Source: Patescibacteria group bacterium
GTDB lineage: Bacteria; Patescibacteriota; Minisyncoccia; GWC2-36-17; M10-OD1-4
DNA: 61,076 bases
Assembly (NCBI GenBank): GCA_038061695.1
Contig: JBBTYT010000005.1
Location: 1 to 61,076 of the forward strand
Direction of reading: 5' to 3'
Under the pieces are notes generated by a model. It was not told the DNA's origin, ran no database searches, and saw only the letters and a program-made list of their open reading frames with translations. The translations under genes were made by a program, and so were the position numbers. Below are positions 13,690-47,892 of the stretch, in pieces (within the stretch, counting starts at the first letter, position 1; each line of letters starts with the position of its first letter).

Positions 13690-13703
13690 CTTTTATCTTT
13701 CTT

Positions 13704-14234: not shown

Positions 14235-14346
14235 TAATTTATAAATAATAAATGACGAATTATGAATTAGATAATGCTAATCTAATTCTTTCTTCTTGAT
14301 TCATTATTTGAATTATTTAATTCTTCTAATATCATCCACATTTAAC

Positions 14347-17885: not shown

Positions 17886-17960
17886 GCTCTCGTCGTTCAA
17901 TGGATAAGACACTCCCCTGCGAAGGGAGAAATGCAGGTTCGATTCCTGCCGAGAGCACCA
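17886..17960 (+). tRNA. tRNA-Arg(GCG), CCA encoded
   Basis: Manual cloverleaf: acceptor GCTCTCG/CGAGAGC, anticodon stem CTCCC/GGGAG, loop CTGCGAA (anticodon GCG), T arm GCAGG-TTCGATT-CCTGC, discriminator A, 3' CCA. Confidence 0.9.
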
Positions 17961-27052: not shown

Positions 27053-28330
27053 TCAGTAGCTTCTATACTTAGCAAGGGGATTATTTGCGCCCCTAACCTC
27101 AAAGTGAAGATGGCATCCTGTTGATTTGCCTGATCCTTGCATTCTAAATAGCTTTCCATTAACATATTCAAACCCTCCACCCATACTCCCTATCTCTTGA
27201 CCCTTCTTGACAAATTGTCCAGATTCCACAGAAATATCCTTCATATGAGCATACAATGTTGCAGTTCCATTAGGATGTGTAATTTTTACATGATTTCCAT
27301 AACCGCCAAAAACAGTTGCTCCGAACTTTGATCTTGATTTTGTCGTTAATGCTGTTGCAACAAGACCGTCAGCAGCGGAATAAATAGGAGAGCCACACTT
27401 ATTTGCCACATCAACTCCATTATAACCATGGACTCCTTGAGACCTAACTCCTTTAGCTGGAAATATAAAATACGAATCTGCATTTACAGTAGATTTGGAA
27501 TAAGTTACTACCGTCTTTGTTTTTGCCACTGCATATACTATAGGCATCTCACCATCAGGAATAATTAAAATTTCACCTAATTGAAGCGCGCCATCTAGAG
27601 ACAAACTATTAAATGTTATAATATCCTCTTTTTTCACTTTATATTTTTTAGCTATCGCAACAATTGTGTCTCCTTTTTTTACATCATGTTGAATTCCTGT
27701 TACTGGTAAAATTTTTAATTCTTGACCCTCTTTAATATAACTTAAAGAATTTAAATTATTTGCCCATAAAACAGTATTTATTGTTACGCCAAACTCTGCG
27801 GCAATCTTTGAAATAGTATCGCCTTGTTCAACTTTATAGATTATGGTTTCTGATCTATCATTCTCAGAAGCAACCGTTGTTAAAGATGCTAATCCAGGAA
27901 TCAAAGAATCATCTCCAGTTGTTGAAATATCAGTATAATCTAAATCTCCCTGATCGTTAGGTCCGCCTTTTGCTTCTTGTATATCAGCATCAACTTCATT
28001 ATAACTCAATGAATCTTTATTATGAAAATTTTGTATATTAATCACACTCGTTCGTATAGCTGTATTCGGAAGATTTAAGGATTTTACATCTAAGTAATCT
28101 AAGGAGAAGATGGAATCAAAAGCAGAAACTCTGCCAGTGCTCTCCATTAGATTAAGAAGAAAGACTAAAATAAAAAGAGAAAAGACAAATGAATAGGTAA
28201 AGTTAACTCTAAAAAATCTATATATGCTTATTATATACCTTAAAGCCTTTCTTAACGAAAATAAAAATAAACTGCCAGTCCAAACTGTGAAGTTTTTCGC
28301 TCCAATACTATCTATTTTACCCTTTAACAA
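27053..28330 (-). CDS. LysM-repeat M23-family peptidoglycan endopeptidase
   Basis: Three LysM units (YKVEQGDTISKIAAEFGV, HDVKKGDTIVAIAKKYKV, and others). The C-terminal M23 region has GVDVA...HVKITHPNG..TLYAHM...TGCHLHFEVR. TTG start, so the start is uncertain. Confidence 0.9.
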   Translation of the reverse strand: MLKGKIDSIGAKNFTVWTGSLFLFSLRKALRYIISIYRFFRVNFTYSFVFSLFILVFLLNLMESTGRVSAFDSIFSLDYLDVKSLNLPNTAIRTSVINIQNFHNKDSLSYNEVDADIQEAKGGPNDQGDLDYTDISTTGDDSLIPGLASLTTVASENDRSETIIYKVEQGDTISKIAAEFGVTINTVLWANNLNSLSYIKEGQELKILPVTGIQHDVKKGDTIVAIAKKYKVKKEDIITFNSLSLDGALQLGEILIIPDGEMPIVYAVAKTKTVVTYSKSTVNADSYFIFPAKGVRSQGVHGYNGVDVANKCGSPIYSAADGLVATALTTKSRSKFGATVFGGYGNHVKITHPNGTATLYAHMKDISVESGQFVKKGQEIGSMGGGFEYVNGKLFRMQGSGKSTGCHLHFEVRGANNPLAKYRSY

Positions 28331-30495: not shown

Positions 30496-31527
30496 ATGTA
30501 CAAACCAAATTTTGAAATAACTCCTAAAATATTAGACCTGATATCCAAGATATCTTCCGCTAGAGAGACGATTTTTTCCGCTCAATTAATCCCTCAATGG
30601 GAAGTTTCTTTGCGTCGTGATGCTATTCTTAATAACGCTCACGCTTCAACAAATATTGAGGGAAACACCCTTTCTAAAAATGAGGTTACAGAACTCTCTT
30701 TGGGAAGAGATGTTTTAAAAACAAAAAAGGAAAAACAGGAAGTTTTAAACTACTTGAGCGCTCTTTCTAATTTGGAAAAATTAACTAAAAATAAAAATAT
30801 CACAAAAAAAAATATCTTAAAAGCCCACAAATGGATAGTAAAAGAAACTTTAGAAAATAAAGAATGGGAGGGCGCCTGCAGAAATATTCAAGTATACATC
30901 GGCAACACAAAGACCGGTATCATCTCTTTTGTTCCGCCAAAACCGGAAGAGATAGAAGAACAATTAGATTCTTTTCTAAGCTGGCTTAACTCGGATCACA
31001 AAATACATCCCATACTTGAGGCCGGCATAACGCACTATGAGATTGCGCGTATTCATCCTTTCGCAGATGGCAATGGAAGATTAGCAAGATTTATTGCCAC
31101 ATGGATATTAGTAAACAGAGGGTTTGATATTAAAAGATTCTTTGCATTAGATGATTATTATAATAGTGATAGAAGAAACTATTATGAAGCTTTAAAAACA
31201 GTAGATAGAGAGACAATAAATATAACAAAATGGCTTGAATATTTTATAGATGGAGTTGCTGTCTCATCTGAAGCTACGAAGAAAAAAGTTCTAATGCTTT
31301 CTGGCGGAAAGAAAAAATCCGGCACCAAACAAATAACTCTCGCAGAAAGAGAGATAAAAATAATAGAATATATAAACCGCCATAGCCAAATAACAAATAG
31401 CGAGACACAAAGAATATTAAATGTAAAAAGACAAGTCGCAACAAAAGAACTTGCCAAGCTTGTGAAAAAAAATGTTATTAGAAAAATCGGCACATACAAA
31501 GATGCAAAATATATTTTAAAAGATTAA
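30496..31527 (+). CDS. Fic-family protein (class II, N-terminal inhibitory helix) with C-terminal winged-helix domain
   Basis: Canonical Fic motif HPFADGNGRLAR. The inhibitory-helix motif S-x-x-x-E-G is seen as STNIEG. C-terminal HTH: ITNSETQRILNVKRQVATKELAKLVKKNVI. Confidence 0.9.
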   Translation: MYKPNFEITPKILDLISKISSARETIFSAQLIPQWEVSLRRDAILNNAHASTNIEGNTLSKNEVTELSLGRDVLKTKKEKQEVLNYLSALSNLEKLTKNKNITKKNILKAHKWIVKETLENKEWEGACRNIQVYIGNTKTGIISFVPPKPEEIEEQLDSFLSWLNSDHKIHPILEAGITHYEIARIHPFADGNGRLARFIATWILVNRGFDIKRFFALDDYYNSDRRNYYEALKTVDRETINITKWLEYFIDGVAVSSEATKKKVLMLSGGKKKSGTKQITLAEREIKIIEYINRHSQITNSETQRILNVKRQVATKELAKLVKKNVIRKIGTYKDAKYILKD

Positions 31528-32443: not shown

Positions 32444-32923
32444 ATGGAAAATTTTGAAGAAAATTATACACAAAGATTGAATCAAGCAAGAGCCTCAGAG
32501 CGACTACAAGCAAATGCAGAATTATCTGATAATCTTGAAGACGAGGAAGATGAGGAAGATGATATGACCTTAGAATTAGAAAACCCGCCAAAACATCCAT
32601 CTTTTCCTTTTATTATAATGCTTTGCGCTGTTTTAAAAGATATGTCAGATGTTCTAACTGCCGGATTTTTAGGAATTATAACATCAGCTTTTTTTGGTCT
32701 TCTTATATTCTTTTGGATAATGCTTCAAGATACAGGCATTATAAGAAAGTTACTCATAAAAAAAGTCGTTTTGAGAATTGTATTGGCATTATTGATAGGA
32801 TTAATTCCTATAGCTGGAGCTATAATACCGGAAGCGACTATATTGGTTTTATTAATATATTTAAATCATTATAAGATAGTTAATAATTTTTATGCGACTT
32901 TGGAAAAAATTGAGATAGTTTAA
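32444..32923 (+). CDS. hypothetical small membrane protein (acidic N-terminus, about 3 TM helices)
   Basis: DNLEDEEDEEDD tract followed by hydrophobic helices. No family recognised. Confidence 0.55.
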   Translation: MENFEENYTQRLNQARASERLQANAELSDNLEDEEDEEDDMTLELENPPKHPSFPFIIMLCAVLKDMSDVLTAGFLGIITSAFFGLLIFFWIMLQDTGIIRKLLIKKVVLRIVLALLIGLIPIAGAIIPEATILVLLIYLNHYKIVNNFYATLEKIEIV

Positions 32924-33016: not shown

Positions 33017-33988
33017 ATGATTGATGAAAAAAGAAAGTTTTCTATTCAGAAAGGGAATGTGATAATTCCTGTTGTTTTGATTTTAGGCGTATTCATTGGC
33101 GGAGTTGTTGTCTTGCAAACAAAAGGAATCGGGGCGAGCCTAATATCAGAGGGTAAGAAGATATTCATACCGGTAGCAGATGAACCAGATGCAGACCCTG
33201 ATAGCGATGGACTTAAAAATTGGGAGGAAACAACTTACAAAACAGATCCGAGAAAATTTGATACGGATGATGACGGCTACTCTGATGGCGAAGAAGTTTT
33301 ATCCGGATATAACCCGATAAAGCCAGCTCCAAATGATGCGCTAGAAGGAACAGATACAACAACGCCAAGACCAACTCCAAAAAATTTAACAGAATATCTA
33401 TCTCAACTAATAATAGATAAAGTGGCAACAGGAGAATTTAAGCCTGTTTCTGATGCAGATACAGCTCCTGACTCCGCACTAATTAACAACGAAGAGATCC
33501 TAAGCGAAGCTCTTGTCCATATCGCGGCAACAGCAGAGAGAGAGTTCGTTTTATCAAGAATAAATGACTCAGAAATTAAAATATCTACAAAGGATACAAA
33601 AAAAGAAGAAGTTTTTGCATATATCGCTTCTATCTCTGCTGTTTTGGAAGATGAAAAAGTCATTACAGATATAGGACTTTCTGAAGCCGAAATAATAGAA
33701 AAAACCGTAGCTACAAAAGATAAAAAAAATATAGAAAAATTAATAGATTTTTATCAGGTTGGCATAGATAAGATTAGAAAGATTACAACACCTAAAGATT
33801 TTGCGGATATTCATAAAGAACAACTGGCAATATTTGAGCTGACAAAGAAGATATTAATTGCGATAAAAAACTTTGAAGAAGATCCTGCGACAGCGGCGGC
33901 GGCGGCAGAGAAATATCCTGATATGAAAAACATATTGGAAAATTTTACAAAAAAACTTGTTGAAAGAATGGGAAGGTATAACGAATAG
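33017..33988 (+). CDS. membrane-anchored protein with thrombospondin type-3-like Ca-binding repeats
   Basis: N-terminal TM (VIIPVVLILGVFIGGVVVL). DPDSDGLKNWEE and DTDDDGYSDGEE are DxDxDG-type repeats at about 33190-33320. Confidence 0.6.
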   Translation: MIDEKRKFSIQKGNVIIPVVLILGVFIGGVVVLQTKGIGASLISEGKKIFIPVADEPDADPDSDGLKNWEETTYKTDPRKFDTDDDGYSDGEEVLSGYNPIKPAPNDALEGTDTTTPRPTPKNLTEYLSQLIIDKVATGEFKPVSDADTAPDSALINNEEILSEALVHIAATAEREFVLSRINDSEIKISTKDTKKEEVFAYIASISAVLEDEKVITDIGLSEAEIIEKTVATKDKKNIEKLIDFYQVGIDKIRKITTPKDFADIHKEQLAIFELTKKILIAIKNFEEDPATAAAAAEKYPDMKNILENFTKKLVERMGRYNE

Positions 33989-34020: not shown

Positions 34021-37000
34021 ATGGGAACATTTGAGAGAATATTTAAGCCAATATCAACGCTCTTAGTTGCGATACTCATCGTCAACTCTTTTCTCTTTGC
34101 TATACTCTACTCTCCGAATCCAGCACGAGCGATATTAGGAGCAGGTGATATCGTTTCCGATCCTATCCAGACCGCATTAACAACGGTTTGGAAAGCTATA
34201 AAAACAGCTTTTGATGCCGCAAAAGCCGCCGCAGACAAAATTTGGCAAGCGTCAGTTACTTTTTTTAATACTTGGGAAAAAAGCGAAAATATAATGGCGC
34301 AAGTCTCCTATGCGCTTCTTTATGCAACAATAGAGCTAATGCTGGCAAAGATGACTACTGATATTGTAAATTGGATTAACGGCGGAGCAAAAGGATCACC
34401 GAAAGTAGCTCTGGATTTTGAAGAAATCTTTGAAGATTCGCTTGATCAAGCGGCTGGCTCTGTCATAGGTGATATTTTAGGTTTGCCAAATGGCGAGCTT
34501 TGCGACCCTAATTTCTTAAAGGTTAATCTCCCTATCTCTCTAGATACCATCCAAGCACCAACATTTCAAGAGAAGTTAAAATGTTCCTTTTCTGAAATTG
34601 GAACAAATATAAAAGATTTTGAAAAAGATTTCTCTAAAGGCGGTTGGATAGGTTGGATTAGATATGGCAAGGGCGCAAACAACCAAATTGGGGCTATGAT
34701 GATAGCAAAAGATGAGCTAGCTAAGAGAGCGGAGAAGGCTGAAAAGGCGGCAGAGCTAAAAATAACTACAGGAGACGGATTTTTACCTCAAGAAGATTGT
34801 GTAGTTACGAGAGATATAAATAAAGAGATAGAAGCTTCATTTGCGTCCTCCGGAGATGGAGATATAGTTGGTGGAATAGCAGAATTTGGAGGAAGATCTC
34901 TTATTGGCAAAAAACTTAAAAATATATTAAGCGCATATGGATATTCCAACGAAGATGATTTTAAATCTTTCTGGAATAGCTCCGGCGGAGCATTTACTTG
35001 CAAAATTAAAACTCCTGCAAAAATTATAGCTGATATAACATCTCAAACTATAACAGCTCCGTTAAAAAAATTAAATGATCAGATGCAAGCGGCGGCTAGC
35101 GAGTTAGGCTCAAAAGCACCTGCAATTCTACGGCCTTACCTCAACGCTATCTCCACCGCCGCCATCAATCTTATCATTAAAAAAGAGCAAGGCATTATCT
35201 CAGGAGTTATACGCCAAAATAAACCAAGAACTAACAAAAGACAAAATACCGATGCTTTCAGAGATTCCTCCAATACTCTCTTTGCTAGCGAGAGCTTATC
35301 AAGCTCAGCAACAGATTTACGCTCCCTTCTTATGAGAACTACTCTGGATTTTTCTCTCTTTGCAGGAGTGCTTAAAGAAGTAGTAGAAAATAAAAATATT
35401 TTATTTGAATCTCCGATTCTAGTATCAGAGCTTATTCATAGCGGGTATATTTGGTCGTCTGGATTTGGATATGGAGCAAAAGCTTCCGTTATTTGGCTTC
35501 CAAATCCTCCATACTCTGACAATCCTACTTCCGTAAACGACCCAAGTATGGATGAATTAATCTCGACTAGAACAAAAGAGGTAATAGACAAAAAAACAGC
35601 TATAGGCTATCCTACACTTCCAATTGCCGGAACTATTAATCTGGCTGGTAAAACTTGCGGAGCATTTACTCAAGAAATTACTCCTACAGTAACGACAACA
35701 TCTAACGAAACCATATCTCCACGTATAGGATATGTGAGTCTTGTAAGTATTACAAATGCTGATGGTAGTATAAGTCCTGCTGGTAGCATAATTTATAATA
35801 ACACTGTATCCGGCAACACTGGTTTTTTTAATGGTCCTCTTGGTCAAACAAGAATAATAGCTTTCAATGACAAAGGATTTATAAATCCAGATAGCCTCCC
35901 TATTCCTACCCCTATTCCTGATAGATTCGTCAGACAAATAGTTAGTCCAAGTAATCCTAATGACCTATTATCAAATACGGTAACATTCATAGATGTTGGG
36001 GGTTTTAATAGTATAGTTGTTGGAACGCCTCTTAATACTACTGATCCTAATTATGATACTACTATTTTATACACAAGCGAACTCTTTTCAGTTGGTTCAA
36101 CAGACCTTAGAGTAAGCACTTCCGGAGCAGGAGATATATATTATATAACAGGCAATAAAAATCCAGGCAACTTAATCTCCAGTGGCAATATTACTTATAC
36201 CTCAGTAGGCATAACTAGCGACTATAACTACCGTTACGCTGTCCAGCTTGGAAATGGAACTAGTGGTTCTGGACAATTTGTAAGACTACCAGAGTATAGC
36301 TCGCTAAGCTTAGCGATAACACCTGCCTATACTGATCCTGATACTTTCGCCTACATTCCTGCTATATATACAGACCCAGCCACAGAGGTTCTATTTAAAG
36401 ATATTTTCGTTGGTGGTACTATTAATTATAGTAATACTGCAAACGGACAAGCTTCATATATAAACTGTAGGAATGATAATGGGTGGTATATAAATCTTTC
36501 TACTTGTCGTTACTGGGATGGAGGTACTTCCAATGAAGTACCCGCTGAAGTAATACCACCGCTCTATACTGGTGGTAATTGCACATGGATAGACTCAGAT
36601 TTTGCAGAGCTGTCTCAAGTTCAATGCGAAAAAAATATACCTATACTAGGGTATTCTTCTCAACCGGACTTAAACCTGATCGGCATTCCAGCATACAGAA
36701 GCGACGAAAATTATAATTTAAAATATTTCTCGCCATCATTCCCTGGAGCAACTACATCAATAGAAAATAAAAGATTGATTGTCAGATATGACGACATCCT
36801 TATTGATCCATCTCAACCTGCTAGCGATACTAACCCGCCTACAACATTAAAAGATGGCGAGGATAAAGTAACTATTAACAATAGTAATCCTTTTAAGATG
36901 ACTCTGCTTGATTTCTTTCCTGAGGTAGATGAGCTACAAAATGAATTTATGGTAAAGATAAGAGTGCTTCTGGGATATACTCAAAGAACCAAAAAGAAAA

Positions 37001-39090
37001 CACATTTCTCCTCTTTAGCCGATCAAATAGGAGCTATACCAGATGACGGAAATATATCTGTGTTAGAATCTTCACCAGGAATAAATTTGCCGTATATCTC
37101 TGTCAGCGATGTTCTGACAAAATATAATAATCTTTCTAAGCTATATCAAGAACTCTTCCTTGGCGTATCAAATGAAGATTCTCTTGAAGGACTTGATCCT
37201 CTATTTAACACCTTAAATGCAACGGAAATAAATATAAAACGCGCCTTGATAGGTCAAAGATGTCCGACGATACCTCCAACTCTCCTTTCGTCACAAAACC
37301 TCATTGATGGTTGCGGTAGATTTGGCGCAACAACGATAAATCCAACCACTACCGGCGAATATAATATGGCAAAGAAATTCATCTTTGAGAGAGAAAGAGT
37401 AGAAGCTCCTAATAGCGGATTTGCGACAAACCCATTTAATGGCACAAATAGTAATGTTATTGCCGGCGTTTTAAACTTGGATGAAATGACTCAACAATTA
37501 GCGACTTTAGCTCCTGATAAAAACATCATAAAGCTCATCAGATTAAGACAGATATTGGAACAACTTCAAATCAATTCTCAACCAATAACATTTTACGGTG
37601 AAACAACAAGCAAAGATAAGGTTATTACGCCAACAATATTAAGCGGAGTTGACACTATCCAACTATCTTTAAGAAACTATCCTGAGATTGAAAACTTTTT
37701 GAATGATATAACAACAGATAATAAACCTATAACTGATCTGATAACAGCTTATGCATTCGCCGTCACAAATACAAAAGAAGCATATCCTGTAATAAGCGAT
37801 GATCTTGATAATATTCTTCCTGATATAACAACTCAGATCCAAGACCAATTAAAAGAAGTCTTCCTAAAAAGGGTTGAGCTTGAGCTTGAACAAGCAAAAA
37901 AAGAAGCTCAAATAAGATTACTTGACTTTATATACTTTGCTGAAGATCTTTCTCCTGCTGTTCAAGTTGAAGTACCGAAAGGCTTCATAAATAGTTCGGA
38001 TGCGATCATTATGGGATTGGATGCTCTTGCAAGTAGGATAATACGAGTTGGCACATCTACATTTAATACTCAGATGGGAATGACACTATCAACGCCATTA
38101 GCGCCTGGAGTAGAAAATAACTGTTTATCTCTATCTGGAGATAAAATATTAGCTATAGCACCATCTACTAACTGCTCGGAAAATCCTGAATTTAAATTAC
38201 GCGGGATGAAAGTTTTACCATGGAATCTTTTTTCAGCTGACCCAGATATGACAATAATCCAAACTAATACTCCTACTTCTCAAGAGATGGAAAAAGCATT
38301 AAAAGCAGTCGGTATAAGAAAAGCATTGATGGCTGGCATAAGAGAAAAAATGAAACATTTTGGAAGAGCTATTGGAGTAAATGTGGACTCGGTAGAATTT
38401 GAAGCTTTTCTATCTCAATATGTCCTTCCTTTGACAAAGAAAGGCGACATACTCCCCGATGGCACCACTGATCTAACAGGCGGGAAAATACCTATTAATG
38501 ATTGGGATGGTAGAATCGCAAGAGGATTAGCGGATGTGGATATTATGTTTACAGGAATATATAGCACAAAGATCAATCATCTAAATAATCCCGGAATAAT
38601 ACTCTCAAATGGAGAGTCTATATATACTGACATACAAACAAAAATGACAGATATCTCAAATAATTTCTCCCTATTACAAGTGGAATTTGAAAAAATAAAG
38701 GAGATTTACACATCTTCTGGAAGCTCATCCATAGCATCATCCAAAGCCTCTCTAGAAGAAATGATTAAACTCTTAAAAACTATGGATGACGCTTTCTCAG
38801 AAGCCCTTGCTTGTACGGATACTGCCCTAAGAATTAATAGCAATGCTAACCAACTTCAACTTGCTCTAGCAACTGGTGGATTAAGTATTCTTACAGACGG
38901 ATTGGGGATAGCTTTTGGCGGTCCTGTAGGGCTAGCTACGGGTATGATAATCGGCGCTTGGCTTACAAGCAGAGCAAAGAAAAAAGCGAAGAAAAAAGCA
39001 AGACAGATAGCGGATACCTGTGCCTCTAAAGCAACGGACTTCAATAATGCCGCTATTGAACTTGTAGATAATTTTATTTGCGGAAAATAA
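34021..39090 (+). CDS. giant (1689 aa) surface protein anchored by N- and C-terminal TM segments
   Basis: Uninterrupted 5 kb ORF. N-terminal TM ISTLLVAILIVNSFLFAILY. C-terminal TM GLATGMIIGAWL followed by the basic stretch SRAKKKAKKKARQ. The central Thr/Ser/Asn/Gly/Pro-rich region suggests beta structure. No family recognised. Confidence 0.85.
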   Translation: MGTFERIFKPISTLLVAILIVNSFLFAILYSPNPARAILGAGDIVSDPIQTALTTVWKAIKTAFDAAKAAADKIWQASVTFFNTWEKSENIMAQVSYALLYATIELMLAKMTTDIVNWINGGAKGSPKVALDFEEIFEDSLDQAAGSVIGDILGLPNGELCDPNFLKVNLPISLDTIQAPTFQEKLKCSFSEIGTNIKDFEKDFSKGGWIGWIRYGKGANNQIGAMMIAKDELAKRAEKAEKAAELKITTGDGFLPQEDCVVTRDINKEIEASFASSGDGDIVGGIAEFGGRSLIGKKLKNILSAYGYSNEDDFKSFWNSSGGAFTCKIKTPAKIIADITSQTITAPLKKLNDQMQAAASELGSKAPAILRPYLNAISTAAINLIIKKEQGIISGVIRQNKPRTNKRQNTDAFRDSSNTLFASESLSSSATDLRSLLMRTTLDFSLFAGVLKEVVENKNILFESPILVSELIHSGYIWSSGFGYGAKASVIWLPNPPYSDNPTSVNDPSMDELISTRTKEVIDKKTAIGYPTLPIAGTINLAGKTCGAFTQEITPTVTTTSNETISPRIGYVSLVSITNADGSISPAGSIIYNNTVSGNTGFFNGPLGQTRIIAFNDKGFINPDSLPIPTPIPDRFVRQIVSPSNPNDLLSNTVTFIDVGGFNSIVVGTPLNTTDPNYDTTILYTSELFSVGSTDLRVSTSGAGDIYYITGNKNPGNLISSGNITYTSVGITSDYNYRYAVQLGNGTSGSGQFVRLPEYSSLSLAITPAYTDPDTFAYIPAIYTDPATEVLFKDIFVGGTINYSNTANGQASYINCRNDNGWYINLSTCRYWDGGTSNEVPAEVIPPLYTGGNCTWIDSDFAELSQVQCEKNIPILGYSSQPDLNLIGIPAYRSDENYNLKYFSPSFPGATTSIENKRLIVRYDDILIDPSQPASDTNPPTTLKDGEDKVTINNSNPFKMTLLDFFPEVDELQNEFMVKIRVLLGYTQRTKKKTHFSSLADQIGAIPDDGNISVLESSPGINLPYISVSDVLTKYNNLSKLYQELFLGVSNEDSLEGLDPLFNTLNATEINIKRALIGQRCPTIPPTLLSSQNLIDGCGRFGATTINPTTTGEYNMAKKFIFERERVEAPNSGFATNPFNGTNSNVIAGVLNLDEMTQQLATLAPDKNIIKLIRLRQILEQLQINSQPITFYGETTSKDKVITPTILSGVDTIQLSLRNYPEIENFLNDITTDNKPITDLITAYAFAVTNTKEAYPVISDDLDNILPDITTQIQDQLKEVFLKRVELELEQAKKEAQIRLLDFIYFAEDLSPAVQVEVPKGFINSSDAIIMGLDALASRIIRVGTSTFNTQMGMTLSTPLAPGVENNCLSLSGDKILAIAPSTNCSENPEFKLRGMKVLPWNLFSADPDMTIIQTNTPTSQEMEKALKAVGIRKALMAGIREKMKHFGRAIGVNVDSVEFEAFLSQYVLPLTKKGDILPDGTTDLTGGKIPINDWDGRIARGLADVDIMFTGIYSTKINHLNNPGIILSNGESIYTDIQTKMTDISNNFSLLQVEFEKIKEIYTSSGSSSIASSKASLEEMIKLLKTMDDAFSEALACTDTALRINSNANQLQLALATGGLSILTDGLGIAFGGPVGLATGMIIGAWLTSRAKKKAKKKARQIADTCASKATDFNNAAIELVDNFICGK

Positions 39091-39094: not shown

Positions 39095-41104
39095 ATGAAT
39101 TTCAAAAAGAAACAATTTATTCTCATCTTATCACTGCTTTTAATAGTATTTTTTGGTTTTTTTCTTACACCAAATCCAGCATATGCTGGGCTGGGAGATA
39201 ATGTTATGACTGGATTCCTAAGATTAATAAACTGGGTACTTAGAATGATAATGGATCTTGAATCTCTTATTTTAGCCCTTATCGGATCATTCGCTGACTC
39301 TGTAATGCAACCGGAACCAATAACAAAGTCTTTTATAGTAGAAAACGGCTGGAATATAGCAAGAGATTTTGCAAATATGTTCTTTATCTTAATACTTCTT
39401 GCTATTGCGTTATCTTTTATCTTATTTCCTCGTTTTCAAATAAAGCAGGCTTTACCAAGACTTCTAGCCATTGCTCTCTTGATAAATTTCTCATTACCTA
39501 TAGCCGGTCTCTTCATAGATTTTGCAAATATTTTTTCCGCTACCTTTTTTAAATTAGCCTCTGCAGGAACTGCAGGCATATCTGAAACAGTAGCTGGGGG
39601 CTTAGGCATTACCAATATATATACTTTCAATGCCAGTGGACAATTTGGAGGCGATACATTGGATAGTGAACAAAAACTTTTCAAAATTCTTTTACTTGGA
39701 ATATTTTTTATGGGTATTTTAATATTCATATTCTTAGCACTTGGTATGATGTTTTTAATTAGAAATATGTATCTATATATATTATTAATATTACTTCCTC
39801 TCGCTCTTGTGGCTTCTATCCTGCCTCAAGGAAAATCTTACTTTTCTAGCTGGACAGGCAAATTTTTTCAATGGACATTTTTTGCTCCAGTAGCGCTCTT
39901 TTTCATATATCTTGCAATAGCTTCCTTTCAGAGCATCATTGGTTCTAAAGCTCAAGATTTTGCGGCTAAAGCTACCATGGAAGATGGTATTCCTCTATTA
40001 GCACAAACTTATAATTATATAGCAATTCTTGGACTTCTAATCGGTTCGCTTGTAGCCGCAAACTCCTTAGGCATAAGAGCTGCTGGAGCATCTTTAACTA
40101 TGCTTAAAAAAGGCGGGAAGATTATGAGAAATGGAATTGGCAGAGGAGTAAGAGGTGTCGGCAGATATGCCAAGAGAGAGGCAGTATATAACGCTGAGAG
40201 ATTATCAGCTTCTAAGGGAATTGAGAATGTCTCTTCATTTCTATCAGGAATACCTTTAGTAGGAGCTTACGCCGGCAGAACAGGACTAAGAGCCGCAACA
40301 AGATTCAAATTGTCCGCTGAAAGTAGAGGTAAAATATCTGATAAGGAGAAAAAGCTTTTAGATAGTATGTCAGATAAACAACAGCTGAAATATTATGAGG
40401 ATATGAAAAGAACAAATTCATCAAGAGCCACAACTCTTGCTGGCATACTCGCTGAAAAAGGTACTCTCACAAAATTTGATCCTAAAAAATCAGTTGACGA
40501 AAATAATGTTGCAACGAAGAAACTCAAAGATGATGCTTATGCGGATGCTGTTAAAGTTGGAAATAAAAATGCTCAGAAGGCTATAGAAAGATCAGCACCT
40601 CAAATATTTGAGGACAATTTAAATAAAAGAAAATTTGTTGTACAAAGGCAAGGCGAAGAAGCAAAAGATAGTGAAACTGGTCTGACAAAAAATGAAATGA
40701 CTCAAGCATATTATAGAGGATTTCGGCCTAGTGATGTGGAAAAAATGGATAAAGGAATGCTTAGTAGCGAGGAAGGTAAAAAATTCTTAAAGAATCTCCA
40801 AATATATGGAAATATGTCCGGTGAACATTTAAAATCAGCTTTAAGAACTGGTTCTCATGACTTCTTGAAAGCATTTGAGGATTCTATAAAAAGTATGAGT
40901 GCCCCAGAAATACGACAGATATCAGAAAACAATAAAAACTTTGTAAACTTCGTAGGTAGCACAGCCGCTAGAGGACTCTCTGGCGCAAAAGAGCTGTCTG
41001 AAAAGATAAAATTATCACAGGGTATTATGCAAACGATATCGACAGTAAGACAGGATACCGCGCAAGCGCTAAAAAATCCTAGAGCCACCGCAAAAACACC
41101 TTAA
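39095..41104 (+). CDS. VirB6/TrbL-like polytopic membrane protein with a long hydrophilic C-terminal extension
   Basis: Signal/TM, at least 6 hydrophobic helices over residues about 80-330, then about 330 hydrophilic residues. It starts 4 nt after the giant gene. Assignment rests on topology, context and gestalt. Confidence 0.6.
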   Translation: MNFKKKQFILILSLLLIVFFGFFLTPNPAYAGLGDNVMTGFLRLINWVLRMIMDLESLILALIGSFADSVMQPEPITKSFIVENGWNIARDFANMFFILILLAIALSFILFPRFQIKQALPRLLAIALLINFSLPIAGLFIDFANIFSATFFKLASAGTAGISETVAGGLGITNIYTFNASGQFGGDTLDSEQKLFKILLLGIFFMGILIFIFLALGMMFLIRNMYLYILLILLPLALVASILPQGKSYFSSWTGKFFQWTFFAPVALFFIYLAIASFQSIIGSKAQDFAAKATMEDGIPLLAQTYNYIAILGLLIGSLVAANSLGIRAAGASLTMLKKGGKIMRNGIGRGVRGVGRYAKREAVYNAERLSASKGIENVSSFLSGIPLVGAYAGRTGLRAATRFKLSAESRGKISDKEKKLLDSMSDKQQLKYYEDMKRTNSSRATTLAGILAEKGTLTKFDPKKSVDENNVATKKLKDDAYADAVKVGNKNAQKAIERSAPQIFEDNLNKRKFVVQRQGEEAKDSETGLTKNEMTQAYYRGFRPSDVEKMDKGMLSSEEGKKFLKNLQIYGNMSGEHLKSALRTGSHDFLKAFEDSIKSMSAPEIRQISENNKNFVNFVGSTAARGLSGAKELSEKIKLSQGIMQTISTVRQDTAQALKNPRATAKTP

Positions 41105-42114: not shown

Positions 42115-42471
42115 ATGAAACAATTTCAAGTTCCACAATTTATAGATATAGAAGATAAGATTCTTGGATTTGTAACTATGCGTCAGTTTTTTACTATGCT
42201 CATTCCGCTAACCGTAGCTATTGTATTATATTTCATATTGGATTTTTTTCTTATGATAATTATTTCTGTGCCAACTACGATTATCTCAGCAATATTTGCT
42301 TTTTATAGACCTAATGGAATGAAGTTTTCAAAATTTATAAGATCATTTTTAAGCTATACATTTAAACCAAGATTATATGTTTGGAAAAGAGAAGAAAAAT
42401 CAATGTCATCTCAAGAAATGGAAATAACGGAATCCGAGAGAATAAAGAAGTTAGATGGATTGAAAAAATAA
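42115..42471 (+). CDS. PrgI-family / VirB3-like small membrane protein
   Basis: N-terminus VPQFIDIEDKILGFVTMRQFF followed by two TM helices. This is the typical PrgI pattern, and the gene sits just upstream of VirB4. Confidence 0.7.
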   Translation: MKQFQVPQFIDIEDKILGFVTMRQFFTMLIPLTVAIVLYFILDFFLMIIISVPTTIISAIFAFYRPNGMKFSKFIRSFLSYTFKPRLYVWKREEKSMSSQEMEITESERIKKLDGLKK

Positions 42472-42516: not shown

Positions 42517-43155
42517 ATGGCAAAATTAAACGCGCAAGCAACACAACAGCTGGTAGATATAGATTCTATAAGAGAAAATGTGGTCATATTGAAAGGCGGG
42601 GCATTACGCTCTATCTTGCTGTGTTCATCTGTAAACTTGGCGTTAAAATCTCAAGATGAACAGGATGCTTTAATATATCAATATCAAAATTTTTTAAACG
42701 GATTGGATTTTTCAATAGAATTTGTTGTACATTCAAGAAAGCTTGATATCTCAGAATATATAACCAATGTAAAAGAAAATTTAGAAAGTCAAAAAAATGA
42801 ACTTCTAAGAATCCAGACGGAGGAGTATATAGAATTCATAGAAAACTTCGTCTCTATGCAAAATATTATGGCAAAATCATTTTATGCTATAATACCATTT
42901 TCACTGACAGAAGATTCAAAACAAGGATTTTTCAGTAAGATGTTATCACCAAAAACAACATCATTCAAAAAAATGTCTGATGACGAATTTATCAAGTACA
43001 AAAACCAACTCTGGCAAAGAGTGGAAAATGTAATATCAGGACTAAGAACTGTCGGCGTAATATCTGAACCACTGAACGACTCTGAATTAAAAGAATTATT
43101 TTTTAATATTTATAACCCAGGCGAAACAGGAAAAGAGATCTTAAACAAATCTTAA
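42517..43155 (+). CDS. VirB4 N-terminal-domain-like protein (no ATPase domain)
   Basis: VDIDSIRENVVILKGGALRSILLCSSVNLALKSQDEQDALIYQYQNFLNGLDFSIEFVVHSRKLD resembles the N-terminal region of Gram-positive VirB4/TraE-type proteins. No Walker motifs. Confidence 0.45.
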   Translation: MAKLNAQATQQLVDIDSIRENVVILKGGALRSILLCSSVNLALKSQDEQDALIYQYQNFLNGLDFSIEFVVHSRKLDISEYITNVKENLESQKNELLRIQTEEYIEFIENFVSMQNIMAKSFYAIIPFSLTEDSKQGFFSKMLSPKTTSFKKMSDDEFIKYKNQLWQRVENVISGLRTVGVISEPLNDSELKELFFNIYNPGETGKEILNKS

Positions 43156-43161: not shown

Positions 43162-44952
43162 ATGTCATCACAAAAATACCAAGAAAATATCAATATACCT
43201 CAAATATCTGATCCTGCCGGATTTAAAGATATCGTTGCGCCATCAGCCATCCAGATAGAAAGCAGGTATATTCAACTTGGTGATAAATTTTTACGAACTC
43301 TATTTTTATACTCTTATCCGAGATTTTTAAATACAAATTGGTTTGCTCCCGTGATTAATCTAGATAGATTTTTTGACATCTCCATACACTTTCATCCTGT
43401 AGATACTGCCATAATAATGAAAAAACTCAATAGAAAAGTTACTTCTGTTGAGGCGCAACTTAATGAGAGATCAGAGAAGGGACTTATAAGAGATCCCATA
43501 CTTGAAACAGCTCTGCAAGATTTGGAGGGGCTAAGAAATTCCTTGCTTCAAGCTACCCAAAAACTTTTCAGAGTTGGTGTCTATATAACCATAATAGAAG
43601 ATACCCTTGATGACCTCAATAAAGCGGAGAGTGAAATCCGTGGAATCTTAGATGCCAGAATGATCTTAACAAAAAACGCGAACTTCCAGCAGGATATTGG
43701 ATTTATGTCCACTCTTCCGCTAGGCAGAGATATACTGGACATTCACTCAAACCTAAATACAGGACCGGCATCAACTATTTTTCCGTTTGTATCCGCTGAT
43801 CTTACATCAAATAAAGGCATCTTATATGGAATAAATAGACACAACAATGGTCTTATTCTATTTGATAGATTCTCTCTTGAAAATGCTAACTCTGTCATCT
43901 TTGCAAAGTCCGGATCAGGAAAAAGCTATACTGCAAAGCTTGAGATATTAAGATCTTTGATGATGGGAACAGAAGTTATTATTATAGATCCTGAAAATGA
44001 ATATAAATATCTTACAGAAACTGTTGGTGGCTCTTTTTTCAAAGTCTCACTAAACTCTTCAAGCCATATCAATCCGTTTGATCTGCCAAAACCGATTGAA
44101 GGAGAATCTCAAGCTGATGTCTTAAGATCAAATATTATAAATCTTGTTGGTATGATGCGTTTAATGCTAGGTCAAATGTCTCCGGAAGAAGACTCTATAG
44201 TAGATAGAGCTCTTGCTGAAACTTATGCATCAAGAGACATAACTCCGGATGTAGATTTCTCAGATACAATACCGCCGACACTTTCTGATTTTCAATCTAT
44301 ATTGGAAAATATGGATGGTGGTTCATCGCTAGCAAAGAGGCTTGAAAAATATACCGAGGGTTCTTATGCCGGATTTTTAAATAATCAAACAAATATAGAT
44401 ATGCAAAATAAGCTCGTTGTATTTTCTATTAGAGATATGGAAACTGAGCTTAGACCGATTGCTATGTATCTTATTATAAGATATGTATGGAATATCATCA
44501 GGGCAAAATTAAAAAAGAGGATACTCCTTGTTGATGAGGCTTGGGTTATGATGCAACATGAAGATGCGGCATCATTTCTATACGGCATCGCAAAAAGATG
44601 TAGAAAATATTATTTAGGACTTACAACGATTACTCAAGATGTTAATGATTTCTTGAGCTCAAAATACGGAAAAGCAATATTAACAAATTCATCATTACAG
44701 CTTTTACTCAAACAATCTCCGGCTACCATAGGAATGGTTAAGGAGGCTTTCAATCTTTCTGAAGAAGAAAAATACTTGCTTCTTGAATGTGGTGTTGGTG
44801 AGGGCATATTCTTTGCTGGACTCAAACATGCCGCCATTAAAGTTATTGCATCATATACCGAAGATCAGATAATAACATCCAATCCAGAACAACTACTTGA
44901 AAGAGAGAAAGAAAGGGCTGACCTTGAGAGAGCAGGAGATAGCGTGGTATAA
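43162..44952 (+). CDS. virB4: VirB4/TraC-family type IV secretion ATPase
   Basis: Walker A KSGSGKSYT (about 43903-43929), Walker B RILLVDEAW (about 44518-44545), and the N-terminal domain IQLGDKFLRTLFLYSYPRFLNTNWF. Confidence 0.9.
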   Translation: MSSQKYQENINIPQISDPAGFKDIVAPSAIQIESRYIQLGDKFLRTLFLYSYPRFLNTNWFAPVINLDRFFDISIHFHPVDTAIIMKKLNRKVTSVEAQLNERSEKGLIRDPILETALQDLEGLRNSLLQATQKLFRVGVYITIIEDTLDDLNKAESEIRGILDARMILTKNANFQQDIGFMSTLPLGRDILDIHSNLNTGPASTIFPFVSADLTSNKGILYGINRHNNGLILFDRFSLENANSVIFAKSGSGKSYTAKLEILRSLMMGTEVIIIDPENEYKYLTETVGGSFFKVSLNSSSHINPFDLPKPIEGESQADVLRSNIINLVGMMRLMLGQMSPEEDSIVDRALAETYASRDITPDVDFSDTIPPTLSDFQSILENMDGGSSLAKRLEKYTEGSYAGFLNNQTNIDMQNKLVVFSIRDMETELRPIAMYLIIRYVWNIIRAKLKKRILLVDEAWVMMQHEDAASFLYGIAKRCRKYYLGLTTITQDVNDFLSSKYGKAILTNSSLQLLLKQSPATIGMVKEAFNLSEEEKYLLLECGVGEGIFFAGLKHAAIKVIASYTEDQIITSNPEQLLEREKERADLERAGDSVV

Positions 44953-45017: not shown

Positions 45018-46067
45018 ATGGGTTACAAATTTAAAATTATAAATATAAAATCTTTAAGCTCTTTATCCTTAATAGCTCTTTTTCTTTTTTCACCAATTTT
45101 ATCTAACGCCCAACAAGCTTATGATTATGATAAAGAAATTCAAGATCAAATATCAAGTGCAGAAGATGAATTCTCTGCTCCTTCTGTTGAATTAAATACA
45201 TCATCAAGCGGCAGAATTGGTCAAACCGCCAATATCTCGGCTACTTTAAATAATATAAATCCAAATACGACTGAATTTTTATGGTATTTGGACGATGTAT
45301 CAGATCAAAAACAATCAGGAAAGGCAAAGAGCGAGTTTTCATTTACAACTTCAAAAGAAAATCATGTCGTCAGATTGACTATTTTGGAGAATAACAAAAA
45401 AGTGGCTGAGAATGCGGTATTAATAAGCTCCTATAATATCTCTCTGATCTGGAAAGCTGAAACTTATGTTCCACCTGAATATGAAGGAAAGGCTATGCCA
45501 ACAAGAGGAAGTAAAGTTACTGTTACAGCAATACCGGACATTAAAGATGTTGACTCTAAAGAACTTCTGTACACATGGTATCTTAATTCTGAATCACAGG
45601 TGAGAGGTGTATTAGGAGAAGATGCATTTTCATTTATAGTATCAAAGAGTGTTGATTTTATACCAGTATTTGTAGAAGTTTCAAATCTCTCAGGGTCAAT
45701 AACAGTAAGCCAAGCTATATCAATACCTGTAGTAAGACCTTCTGTCTTGCTATATCATAAAACATCTGAAAAAAGATCTGAGCTCGCCTTAAATAATATA
45801 GATATCTCTCCCGGAAAATCAATATCAGTGATAGCAAGGCCATTTAATTTTCAAGCAAACAATCTGACAGATTTTGATTATATTTGGGAGTTTATAGGTA
45901 ATAAGGCATTCGGAGATAATATAGATCCGAGCCTATTAACATTACAAATATCTGAAAATTCTGCTTTGGGAAGTAAAAATTTAACCTTACTAGCAACTAG
46001 CCGTAAATCATATAAAGAACGAGCCGTCTCAAACCTGACTGTTAATATAATAAAACAGCAAGAATAA
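45018..46067 (+). CDS. secreted protein with three roughly 100-aa beta-sandwich-like repeats
   Basis: Signal peptide ending SNAQQ. A motif recurs at about 100-aa spacing: TEFLWYLDD, ELLYTWYLNSE, DFDYIWEFIGN. Confidence 0.6.
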   Translation: MGYKFKIINIKSLSSLSLIALFLFSPILSNAQQAYDYDKEIQDQISSAEDEFSAPSVELNTSSSGRIGQTANISATLNNINPNTTEFLWYLDDVSDQKQSGKAKSEFSFTTSKENHVVRLTILENNKKVAENAVLISSYNISLIWKAETYVPPEYEGKAMPTRGSKVTVTAIPDIKDVDSKELLYTWYLNSESQVRGVLGEDAFSFIVSKSVDFIPVFVEVSNLSGSITVSQAISIPVVRPSVLLYHKTSEKRSELALNNIDISPGKSISVIARPFNFQANNLTDFDYIWEFIGNKAFGDNIDPSLLTLQISENSALGSKNLTLLATSRKSYKERAVSNLTVNIIKQQE

Positions 46068-46702
46068 TGAAATACAAAAAGATCATCTTAATATTATTTT
46101 TTACCGTAGTGCTTGTCGTTATTTCAGATACGGCTAGCGCTGTTATATTGGAATCAGGGATCCCTGGAAAAGATGGATATGCTCCTGGCGTCGAAGCTCC
46201 TGACATCAAAGAATATCTGGAGTTAATTTATAAATTTATGATAGGCCTTATCGGTATTGCCGGTTTCGCCTCACTAGTTTGGTATGGAATAGTTTGGATA
46301 TACTCAGGAATATCAGAGAAAAAATCAGAAGCACTGGAGGGCATAAAAAATACTCTCATTGGCATAGCTCTTGCCCTATCTTCTTATGCAATATTATATA
46401 CAATAAACCCTAATCTTCTAACACTCACAATACCAACACCTCCAAAAAATATAATTACTACACAGCCTATGACCCACCCTCAAATGGTTTATAGTACTAG
46501 AGAATTTGGAAATTGGTATTATGACTACTACTCTACTCTAAATGGAACAATACGGAACAGCTTAGGATATACTGGACCTACAGCCGAACTTAATTGCCAA
46601 AAAACTGTATTAGCATTTCAAAATACATTATATGTCAACTCAACATTGCCTGACAAACTAATAATAGTCAATCCATGTTATGAATATTCTGGGTACAGAT
46701 AA
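46067..46702 (+). CDS. VirB2/TrbC-like T4SS pilin with an extra C-terminal domain
   Basis: Signal peptide (...SDTASA), then two hydrophobic helices separated by a short polar loop (MIGLIGIAGFASLVWYGIVWIYSG...KSEALEGIKNTLIGIALALSSYAILY). The start overlaps the upstream stop as TAATG. No type IV prepilin G/FTLxE motif. Confidence 0.6.
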   Translation: MKYKKIILILFFTVVLVVISDTASAVILESGIPGKDGYAPGVEAPDIKEYLELIYKFMIGLIGIAGFASLVWYGIVWIYSGISEKKSEALEGIKNTLIGIALALSSYAILYTINPNLLTLTIPTPPKNIITTQPMTHPQMVYSTREFGNWYYDYYSTLNGTIRNSLGYTGPTAELNCQKTVLAFQNTLYVNSTLPDKLIIVNPCYEYSGYR

Positions 46703-46761: not shown

Positions 46762-47892
46762 ATGACAAAAAAAAGTAAAATTTCATTAGTTATCATAATT
46801 ATAATCCTTATCGTTGGGTCTGTTTTTGCTTACTACCTCCTTGTAGTCGGTAAAAAACCAACTATCATAAAGGAGAAGGATACTCCTAATAAAGAAATCA
46901 TAATATCAACAACAGAAAAATCAAGCAAATTAGTTCAAATAACTGATGAAAATGTTGTATCACCGGCAATAAATGAGGAAAAAAAGAGAATAAGATATAT
47001 AACAAAAAATGATGGTGTTTTGTATCAATCCGACTTGAAAGGGGAGAATAAAATAAAAATACCATTCGTAAGCTTAGGCGGTATTATAAAAATTATCTGG
47101 ACGGAAGATCAAGAAAAATTCATCAATATCTATTCAGATTCTTTTGGTGTCAAAAGCTTCTTTTATGATTTAGCGTCAAAACAAGCCGTGCCTTTAAATA
47201 AAAATATAACTTGGCTTGATTATTCAAAAAATACAGATAAAATATTTTATCACTACTACGACTCCTCGCAAAGCATAAATTCAATTGCTACTTCAAATTC
47301 AGATGGTTCTCTTTCAAAAAGTATAATCAATACAAGATTACAGGATGTTAGACTTCAATGGATAACAGATAAAAAAATTGCAATATCCACAGCGCCTTCA
47401 GGACTTGCGCAAAATATACTTTATACCTTAAATCCTGAATCTCCAAAATTTATTAAAATATTAAGTGGCATTTACGGATTAACACATAAGTGGTCTTCCG
47501 ACGGCTCCAAGTTCGCCTTCTCTCAAACAGATAAAGATGGCGCTAGTCTAACATTAAATATATCAAACGAAAGTGGACTTGAGATATCAAACACTAGAAT
47601 AATAACATTGCCTGAAAAATGCGTATTTATGAAAGATAATATATCTCTTTTATGCGCAGAAATGTTAAGTGTGCCGGAAAATGCAATAATGCCTGATGAT
47701 TATTACAAAAAAACATTCATCGCAAATAATAGACTATGGAAATTAAATACCGAAACAAATAAAAAAGATATCATCTACGATTTTAATGAAGACATTAATT
47801 TTGATCTTGACAATCTCACCCTCACAAACGACGAAAAATACTTATATTTTACAAATAGAGCAAATGGATTTCTTTATAGATTAGAACTCTAG
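46762..47892 (+). CDS. membrane-anchored TolB-like beta-propeller protein
   Basis: N-terminal TM, then repeated PD40-like segments (NDGVLYQSDLKGEN, SNSDGSLSKSI, SSDGSKFAFSQTDKDG). Confidence 0.5.
   Translation: MTKKSKISLVIIIIILIVGSVFAYYLLVVGKKPTIIKEKDTPNKEIIISTTEKSSKLVQITDENVVSPAINEEKKRIRYITKNDGVLYQSDLKGENKIKIPFVSLGGIIKIIWTEDQEKFINIYSDSFGVKSFFYDLASKQAVPLNKNITWLDYSKNTDKIFYHYYDSSQSINSIATSNSDGSLSKSIINTRLQDVRLQWITDKKIAISTAPSGLAQNILYTLNPESPKFIKILSGIYGLTHKWSSDGSKFAFSQTDKDGASLTLNISNESGLEISNTRIITLPEKCVFMKDNISLLCAEMLSVPENAIMPDDYYKKTFIANNRLWKLNTETNKKDIIYDFNEDINFDLDNLTLTNDEKYLYFTNRANGFLYRLEL

Follow-up and report, generated by a model that had tools for sequence, protein, structure and literature searches.

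A giant gene preceding virB6 in a patescibacterial type IV secretion cluster is a long-form member of a large, so far unreported family

What does a protein of 1689 residues, without a recognizable domain, do directly before the VirB6-like gene of a type IV secretion system (T4SS)? The question is raised by a 61,076-nucleotide stretch of DNA from a Patescibacteria group bacterium (contig JBBTYT010000005.1 of assembly GCA_038061695.1; hereafter, the window), in which one gene of 5.07 kb heads straight into such a gene. The original prediction, made by a model from the letters of the sequence, saw a mostly extracytoplasmic protein anchored at both ends that might stand in for VirB8/9/10 or for an adhesin. 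We propose, at a probability of about 0.5, that the giant gene encodes the long version of an extracytoplasmic subunit that is conserved in the T4SS of the Parcubacteria/Paceibacteria type, a monoderm system resembling the FATA class of mating-pair formation (MPF-FATA). The chances also seem even that this subunit is a stalk or pilus-associated component in the position of VirB5, fused to a variable host-contact region.

The gene is real and conserved. From its ATG at 34021 on the forward strand to its TAA at 39088-39090, it is the single uninterrupted open reading frame (ORF) that had been described, with no internal stop in the ORF listing or translation, and the next ATG, at 39095, leaves the gap of 4 nt that had been noted. 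The frame is also intact in independent assemblies: full-length homologues in eight further clusters are 1613 to 1785 aa long, share 42 to 50% identity and lack signs of frameshifts. At least nine full-length homologues are known in total, each of them on a contig of the Candidatus Azambacteria/Parcubacteria type. Matches to the giant protein in genome collections are metagenome-assembled genomes (MAGs) labelled Candidatus Azambacteria and Parcubacteria group. As a whole, the protein has no match in Pfam, NCBIfam or the sequences of the PDB; searches of these libraries and of PHROGs with the whole protein and its profile returned low-complexity C-terminal matches only.

A profile of residues 1 to 690 (alignment A3), run with hmmsearch of the HMMER package against 1.84 billion representative proteins, gave a different result, matching 3597 representative clusters at E ≤ 1e-3, of which 1881 reach E ≤ 1e-10. 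Nearly all of these are short forms of 450 to 900 aa that align to the first 265 to 400 profile positions only. In about 15 further representative clusters, counted with truncated fragments excluded, the match extends further; these are long forms of 1300 to 1950 aa. Homology between the long and the short forms extends over residues 1 to 397 of our protein (hhalign of A1 against A7: probability 100%, E 3.5e-54), and the giant protein itself matches the profile significantly over about residues 1 to 400, which we call the N module. A word-indexed search with a diverse N-module alignment yielded just two matches. There is no Pfam or NCBIfam model for the family, the N-module profile matched no PDB sequence, and the family is so far unreported and nameless. 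The statement that the protein holds no known domain is thus right for curated libraries and incomplete otherwise: its first 400 or so residues belong to a huge uncharacterized family, and the leader and first mature residues of that family resemble those of VirB5, TrbJ and DUF4141 proteins.

Linkage of the family to the T4SS is essentially absolute. In the window, the giant gene lies directly upstream of the VirB6-like gene, with PrgI, TrsD and VirB4 following. The match of the VirB6-like gene to TrbL/VirB6 is weak and below the cut-off, and its orthologues carry precomputed TrbL_3 matches. The same order, from a gene with thrombospondin type 3 (TSP3) repeats through the family gene, the VirB6-like gene and one unassigned gene to PrgI, TrsD and VirB4, recurs in Azambacteria and Parcubacteria MAGs, on contigs of close homologues and around distant members of 988, 648 (a short form) and 1914 (a long form) aa. 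A metagenome scan gave 80 related loci, each of which was searched with the proteins encoded around the giant gene. Where at least 9 kb of downstream sequence made a locus testable (n = 23), PrgI, TrsD and VirB4 followed in the same order without exception (23/23), and VirB6 was detectable in 21. The tie to a VirB4 cluster that had been predicted therefore holds for close and distant homologues alike; homologues scattered away from VirB4, the outcome that would have spoken against it, did not turn up, all testable loci being linked. KsgA and UvrD genes lie further upstream in the metagenome loci, and flanking housekeeping genes held in common in this way speak for vertical inheritance with the chromosome. 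When the N module was compared by tblastn with 72,556 plasmids, and the C-terminus with 50,697 phages, neither gave a match, which, at the sensitivity of BLAST, makes the family neither a plasmid-borne part of conjugation nor a phage protein.

The N module is the part that all members have in common. The helical Ala/Lys-rich stretch that had been predicted after the hydrophobic leader, DPIQTALTTVWKAIKTAFDAAKAAADKIW, lies at residues 47 to 75 and forms a helix in an AlphaFold2 (AF2) model of residues 37 to 500 built from 38 sequences; the model consists of helices and one hairpin (predicted local distance difference test [pLDDT] score 62, predicted template modelling score 0.35). Recurrent motifs are NDIVNWINGG-KG-P, DF--GGW-GW---NN, G-GF, C--TP and PY--AI--A-N, and the invariant positions across 38 sequences (A5) are Cys, Gly, Trp and Phe. 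Four cysteines are conserved (C161, C188, C260 and C327), and such Cys pairs fit an extracytoplasmic location.

What follows the N module is found in long forms only. The predicted richness in Thr, Ser, Asn, Gly, Pro and Tyr at nucleotides 35460 to 36720 is borne out, with 49 to 55% of these residues at positions 501 to 900 compared to 28 to 42% elsewhere. Residues 401 to 690 align to Kelch-bearing long forms, and a conserved beta-rich portion, with the motifs CGAFTQE, PDRFVR and TFID, reaches to about residue 690. Column identity then drops to 0.30 to 0.36 over residues 691 to 880, compared to 0.6 to 0.8 in the flanks. At the position of this hypervariable stretch, members of sister clades (P0020, P0021, P0023 and P0024) carry a Kelch beta-propeller, as in the gene at 10001-15745 of locus L011, where it covers residues ~760 to 1065; these Kelch-bearing forms of 1800 to 1950 aa are homologous to our protein over about 1500 columns (E 1e-199). 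A module-swapping, fast-evolving and exposed region is what one would expect of a ligand- or host-binding surface, and the role in host contact or adhesion that had been suggested agrees with the evidence to this extent: the hypervariable, beta-rich centre fits it, as does the propeller of the sister clades. As to whether a diversity-generating retroelement might drive the variation, the window holds no repeats of the template/variable type.

All long forms possess the mainly helical C module beyond the centre, and the short forms lack it. No homology was detected between this module and the short forms or between it and the 446-aa gene 3′ of a distant homologue, and an AF2 model of residues 885 to 1689 from nine sequences was unusable (pLDDT 44). 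All long forms end alike, with the C module, a Gly/Ala-rich hydrophobic stretch of 35 to 45 residues, a basic cluster and a C-x(19)-C tail closing on F-x-C-G. In the giant protein, this is the C-terminal hydrophobic and polybasic arrangement of the original prediction, made up of a Gly-rich segment at residues 1614 to 1649 (Kyte-Doolittle hydropathy, 1.3 to 1.6) followed by SRAKKKAKKKARQ. The tail (39019-39087, residues 1667 to 1689) is kept in distant Kelch-bearing long forms, and C1667, F1685, C1687 and G1688 are invariant in our alignment.

How the protein sits in the envelope was judged from hydropathy, conservation of the AxA site and the positive-inside rule. A hydrophobic N-terminal segment is indeed present, at about residues 10 to 32 (Kyte-Doolittle values up to 2.57). 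Directly after its core comes a P-(K/Q/N)-x-A-x-A site whose -1 position, Ala37, is invariant in alignments A1, A3 and A8; the AxA site is found in 85 of 86 N-terminally complete family members. A conserved A-x-A pattern after a hydrophobic core is the signature of signal peptidase I, and the segment is most likely a cleaved Sec signal peptide rather than the first of two anchors. With the leader cleaved, the C-terminus alone can anchor the giant protein; some 1575 residues would then be beyond the membrane, and the C-terminal segment would be what holds them, if anything does. The claim that the protein is mostly extracytoplasmic is supported, and that of a double anchor is not. The basic cluster after the C-terminal segment fits an N-out/C-in stop-transfer. 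As the hydrophobic stretch is long and the tail holds two invariant cysteines, a hairpin is possible too. In a cytoplasmic tail, a conserved pair of cysteines would be unusual.

Short forms carry a signal sequence and lack a C-terminal membrane segment. It is the N-termini of the family that point to a known class of proteins. When 30 full-length short forms were scanned, three matched DUF4141 (PF13605) and two TrbJ, in each case at the end of the leader and over the first 30 to 40 mature residues. A second scan, limited to the first 75 residues of 40 family members, matched DUF4141 in 14 (best E 7.8e-8), TrbJ PRK13874 in 7 (7.2e-5), "pilin minor subunit VirB5" PRK13860 in 3 (7.3e-4), VirB5 TIGR02791 in 2 (0.015), TrbJ PRK13879 in 2 (0.032) and PF07996 in 1 (0.15). 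Other families were hit by one member each, save PmrR with two weak matches (E 0.042). DUF4141 is also seen in long forms, namely, the orthologue P0007 (E 1.1e-5, 25.1 bits), P0021 (0.021) and P0002 (0.064), and P0014 touches PF07996. The Pfam gathering score of DUF4141, 30 bits, is reached neither by P0007 nor by the giant protein, which has no match; for the best-matching member, the bit score may be near or above it.

The motif behind these matches can be read by eye. The mature N-terminus of VirB5 from R388 (TrwJ; sequence from NC_028464) begins QGIPVFDG..., that of the giant protein ILGAGDIVSDP..., and many relatives have GDIVFDP or QFVVFDA. When a VirB5 profile built from 37 sequences (A9) was aligned to the family N-termini with hhalign, PVFD fell on IVSDP of our protein in register, weakly (E 7.6e-4, probability 25%). 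A search of the family with the single TrwJ sequence gave no match. The pattern that the family seems to have in common with VirB5/TrbJ minor pilins such as TrwJ is a probable Sec signal peptide with an AxA site, then a mature N-terminus of the form hydrophobic-V-x-D(P/G) and then a long amphipathic helix. The gene adjoins virB6 in both, and the clusters encode a VirB2-like pilin; in the window, the candidate for it is the gene at 46067-46702, and the gap to the VirB6-like gene is the 4 nt given above. The analogy to VirB5 is drawn from five traits, namely, the way of export, the motif at the N-terminus, a helical character, the adjoining gene and the presence of a VirB2-like pilin in the same cluster.

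DUF4141 proteins are small, about 200 aa. The TraJ of Bacteroides conjugative transposons is presumably the counterpart of VirB6 and TraG that of VirB4, and we take DUF4141 proteins to be TraI-like. In these transposons, DUF4141 proteins are encoded next to traJ and near the TraG ATPase gene (PMC10434189), a neighbourhood beside a VirB6-like gene that our family shares. DUF4141 is the best-scoring known model for the family leader and mature N-terminus; it spans only 53 positions, however, and the Bacteroidetes that carry it are diderm, with systems of the MPF-B type.

Family membership, synteny, modular variability and similarity in the N-terminal motif are observed. As to mechanism, VirB5 is known to be exported by Sec, to dock as a pentamer on VirB6, to start pilus growth and to end at the pilus tip as an adhesin (PMC12857230). 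We imagine that the giant protein is likewise exported by Sec and that the signal peptide is cut after Ala37. The freed N-terminus together with the helical N module, which extends as far as residue ~400, is the universal part of the family and would most likely dock on the VirB6 platform, because the gene lies just upstream of virB6 and because of the export route, the helical character and the VirB5/TrbJ/TraI-like N-terminal motif. There the N module may serve as a stalk or as a pilus-nucleating, tip-type subunit for the VirB2-like pilin of the cluster, by analogy to TrwJ/TrwI of R388. The following ~1290 residues would be a lineage-specific extension, in which the beta-rich region with its hypervariable insert (a Kelch propeller in sister clades) may present a surface that binds the host or a ligand. 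Hydrophobic segment and tail would together hold the protein in the membrane of its own cell and may contact cytoplasmic parts of the T4SS. The giant protein may thus work like, and may even derive from, a VirB5-type subunit; we do not file it as a member of the VirB5 family.

Several observations weigh against a place in the position of VirB5. The N-terminus of the giant protein itself has no match to any of the hidden Markov models, the DIVSDP-type motif is present in it and in 33 of 86 members, i.e., in about 40% of the family only, and the full-length VirB5 profile does not match the family profile (A9 against A7). The matches to VirB5, TrbJ and DUF4141 cover no more than the end of the leader and some 30 to 40 mature residues, are mostly below curated cut-offs and may owe part of their score to the signal peptide; homology to VirB5/TrbJ is not detectable beyond about 40 residues, and the giant protein has no match at the curated cut-offs of PF07996 or TIGR02791 over the helical bundle, scoring below reporting thresholds. 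Foldseek of the N-module model against the PDB, VirB5/TraC and R388 chains included, found nothing better than E 1.7. With its 1689 aa, the protein is roughly seven times as large as VirB5 (~220 aa; the family norm is 450 to 900 aa). Unlike VirB5/TrbJ of Gram-negative T4SSs, it comes from a monoderm organism and has a C-terminal membrane segment, and it is difficult to see how a protein anchored in this way would travel to a pilus tip. To our knowledge, a pilus has never been demonstrated for these organisms. Finally, the T4SS of Saccharibacteria, the only one tested genetically, has another arrangement before VirB6: in Southlakia epibionticum an array of pilin genes, in place of the family gene, precedes VirB6, and an NTF2-like protein follows it (Table S2 of PMC10633639). 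Because of this arrangement, the family may be specific to clusters of the Parcubacteria/Paceibacteria type.

A bolder version of the same idea, tentative and on balance doubtful, would make the whole family the missing equivalent of VirB5, sitting on VirB6, nucleating the VirB2-like pilus and carrying the host-recognition module; the giant forms would add a propeller or hypervariable domain and a glycine zipper that reaches or inserts into the host envelope. If this were true, the family would be the T4SS part that forms the physical link between epibiont and host, and it would define host range.

A hypervariable or Kelch-bearing centre and a C-terminal hydrophobic segment with a basic stop-transfer would also suit a surface adhesin, or an envelope protein, whose gene is transcribed together with those of the T4SS but which stands outside the machine, tethered by its C-terminal transmembrane (TM) segment and binding the host through its variable centre. 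The N module would then serve folding or attachment to the wall instead of docking on VirB6. It speaks for such a protein that no adhesin has so far been detected in patescibacterial T4SS clusters (PMC12102498) and that the N-module model has no structural match to any part of a T4SS. We consider it unlikely nonetheless. The most conserved part is the N module and not the variable region, and its fixed place beside virB6 across thousands of divergent clusters is the behaviour of a core subunit, not of an accessory adhesin; moreover, the short forms are without any membrane or wall anchor, the giant protein, unlike the PrgB-type, LPXTG-anchored adhesins of Gram-positive T4SSs, lacks an LPXTG sequence, and adhesin families of Pfam gave no match.

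An envelope-spanning scaffold that replaces VirB8, VirB9 and VirB10, a single polypeptide bridging membrane, wall and surface layer around the channel, is close to what the original prediction had in mind. Size, a mostly extracytoplasmic topology, the C-terminal membrane segment and the tight coupling to virB6 are in keeping with it, and VirB8 homologues are rarely detectable in Patescibacteria (PMC12102498). Such a scaffold cannot be the core function of the family, however, since most members are of 450 to 900 aa and have neither C module nor TM segment. In the medium-quality model, the N module is helical with one hairpin and not NTF2-like, VirB8-like families (PrgL/TraM/TcpC) gave no match, and two bitopic proteins encoded downstream of VirB4 (349 and 376 aa) are equally good candidates for VirB8. 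VirB7, VirB9 and VirB10 are absent from monoderm T4SSs (PMC12102498), which do not need them. With a helical N module, a VirB6 neighbour and an N-terminal motif that point to VirB5, we find the replacement of VirB8/9/10 quite improbable.

Modelled on proposals for the tape-measure and ejection proteins of phages, another possibility is a translocon that penetrates the host membrane, its C-terminal, glycine-zipper-like hairpin entering that membrane as a conduit for uptake of host material. Residues 1573 to 1674 (38737-39042), i.e., a coil, the Gly-rich stretch and a Lys-rich helix within the C-terminal ~100 residues, match the tape-measure family phrog_339 (4.9e-6) and, weakly, the crAss-like phage cargo protein gp45 (7qog_M, E 0.1) and Romo1 (0.036). 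The resemblance is that of a Gly/Ala-rich stretch followed by a Lys-rich helix in a very long, largely helical protein; the hydrophobic stretch, at 35 to 45 aa, is too long for one TM segment, and the two conserved cysteines of the tail would suit an extracellular disulfide. The likeness is short and of low complexity (Gly-rich plus Lys-rich), though, the phage context and matches in phage genomes are missing, and the polybasic stretch fits an ordinary N-out/C-in stop-transfer. Experimental precedent in T4SSs is also absent, and we rate a translocon of this kind as a long shot. Probably the three matches reflect a glycine-zipper-type membrane segment in common and not homology. Identity with a phage tape-measure protein as such was rejected, as the match is confined to residues 1573 to 1674, the context is that of a T4SS, and phage DNA gave no match.

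Very improbable, finally, is a VirB1-type hydrolase that opens the cell wall for the machine, even though monoderm VirB1 analogues are large, with an N-terminal TM or signal segment, and homologues of VirB1 are seldom found close to virB4 in most Patescibacteria (PMC12102498): hydrolase families (SLT, CHAP, NlpC/P60 and M23) gave no match, the N module has no invariant acidic residue or Asp/Glu/His/Cys-His set (A5, 38 sequences), and a nearby conserved gene for an M23 peptidase with LysM domains is the better candidate.

The subunit we propose belongs to a cluster that is otherwise familiar (Table 1). It is a chromosomal, relaxase-free, MPF-FATA-like T4SS as described for Patescibacteria (PMC12102498); the cluster genes that were scanned include neither a relaxase nor a coupling protein gene. 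The giant gene is not at its head, as had been thought, because two genes lie just upstream, one for a TSP3 protein and one for a membrane protein of 159 aa. In most of the 80 metagenome loci, the former lies some 1.05 kb before the family gene, and it probably is another undescribed part of the patescibacterial T4SS; a small gene of similar size to the latter precedes it in the four related loci that were read gene by gene. Beyond them come, with growing distance, KsgA, a Fic-domain protein with a C-terminal winged helix, which is conserved at this place between UvrD and KsgA in loci L003 and L005 of close relatives, and UvrD. The M23 peptidase, which has two LysM domains and recurs in loci L005 and L008, is a candidate VirB1-type wall-opening enzyme of the T4SS, in agreement with the VirB1 homologues bearing M23 and LysM that are reported near virB4 in Paceibacteria (PMC12102498).

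Downstream, the space between the VirB6-like gene and PrgI is taken by a gene for a 294-aa protein without TM segments. In the P0002 cluster (L005/L006, 17905-18240 and 7642-8334), a gene for a 111-aa bAvd/23S_rRNA_IVP protein lies between a 309-aa gene and PrgI, and a Y1 (IS200-like) transposase gene is found upstream; both genes are absent from the window. bAvd is an accessory protein of diversity-generating retroelements. VirB4 is split over two adjacent genes in all related loci, a TrsD/TraC-like one (212 aa), corresponding to the N-terminal part of Mycoplasma-type VirB4, and one for the ATPase (596 aa). The 349-aa and 376-aa proteins, both of unknown function, recur as conserved genes after VirB4 in many of the related loci and are candidates for an undetected VirB8-like part. 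On the opposite strand, two tandem genes for Wzy_C (O-antigen-ligase-like) membrane proteins form the end of the cluster, and a Wzy_C gene is at the same place in loci L005, L007 and L010. Two 2-kb bins of raised G+C content (~0.40), at 4 to 6 kb and 18 to 20 kb, lie at or beside the two tRNA genes.

Table 1. Positions in the window of the giant gene, of its parts and of neighbouring features
Feature	Position	Strand	Basis
tRNA-Gly(TCC)	4217-4291		
tRNA-Arg(GCG)	17886-17960		
M23 peptidase with two LysM domains	27053-28330	-	
Fic-domain protein	30496-31527		
159-aa membrane protein	32444-32923		Upstream of TSP3 gene
TSP3 (calcium-binding repeat) protein, 323 aa, N-terminal TM	33017-33988	+	Pfam TSP3_bac 9.8e-8
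Giant gene, 1689 aa, long-form member of T4SS-linked family	34021-39090	+	ORF, translation, full-length homologues
Probable Sec signal peptide (residues 1-37), ending NPARA/I	34021-34131	+	Hydropathy; Ala37 invariant; AxA site
Mature N-terminus (residues 38-75), ILGAGDIVSDP... and amphipathic helix; VirB5/TrbJ/DUF4141-like motif	34132-34245	+	HMM matches of family N-termini
Conserved N module (residues 38 to ~400), mostly helical, with Cys161/188/260/327	34132-35220	+	hmmsearch, hhalign, AF2
Linker and conserved S/T/N/G/P-rich region (residues 401-690), long forms only	35221-36090	+	A1, conservation profile
Hypervariable insert (residues 691-880)	36091-36660	+	Column identity
C module (residues 881-1613), mainly helical, conserved among long forms only	36661-38859	+	Alignment A4
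Gly-rich hydrophobic segment (residues 1614-1649), putative membrane anchor or hairpin	38860-38967	+	Hydropathy
Polybasic stretch and conserved C-x19-C tail (...CASKATDFNNAAIELVDNFICGK)	38968-39087	+	Invariant residues; motif in distant long forms
VirB6/TrbL-like polytopic membrane protein	39095-41104	+	PF04610 7.4e-5; TrbL_3 in orthologues; ~7 hydrophobic segments
PrgI (VirB3-like)	42115-42471	+	PF12666 2.9e-11
TrsD/TraC-like protein (VirB4 N-terminal part)	42517-43155	+	NCBIfam TrsD 4.9e-7; VirB4_plasma residues 101-273
VirB4 ATPase	43162-44952	+	NCBIfam CD1110-family VirB4 1.2e-115; PF19044
Exported protein, 349 aa, signal sequence	45018-46067		Downstream of VirB4
VirB2-like T4SS pilin candidate	46067-46702	+	PF18895 1.2e-5, just below cut-off; NCBIfam Mbov_0395 pilin-like 0.0023
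Bitopic protein, 376 aa, N-terminal TM	46762-47892		Downstream of pilin candidate
Wzy_C membrane protein	47889-49151	-	
Wzy_C membrane protein	49169-50479	-	

The T4SS of these organisms is already known; the N-module component is new. With the systems described previously (Quinonero-Coronel et al. 2025; Wang et al. 2023), the cluster shares PrgI, TrsD, VirB4, a VirB6-like protein, a VirB2-like pilin and its chromosomal location, whereas those surveys report no VirB5 and no adhesin and leave the N-module family and its giant members unmentioned. Specifically, the genomic survey detected neither an adhesin nor VirB5 in the system of the Patescibacteria clade and mentions no giant protein (PMC12102498), and a component of VirB5-like or adhesin type is missing from its list for this system as well as from that of the nomenclature review of 2025.

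The patescibacterial T4SS is the only one known to be essential for the growth of its owner, as shown in Saccharibacteria, and is unusual among monoderm systems in that VirB2-like pilins are encoded, its cargo, and whether a pilus is built at all, being open questions (PMC10633639, PMC12857230). An exported, conserved subunit encoded before virB6, with a VirB5-type N-terminus and a variable distal part, is a concrete candidate for a pilus-nucleating, host-contact component of this machine. The giant protein itself is mostly extracytoplasmic and linked to the T4SS, and it probably is in contact with the host. Its variable centre, or the Kelch insert of its relatives, may offer a sequence handle for predicting host specificity. 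The giant form is a lineage-specific elaboration, and the broader value lies in the family that it has exposed.

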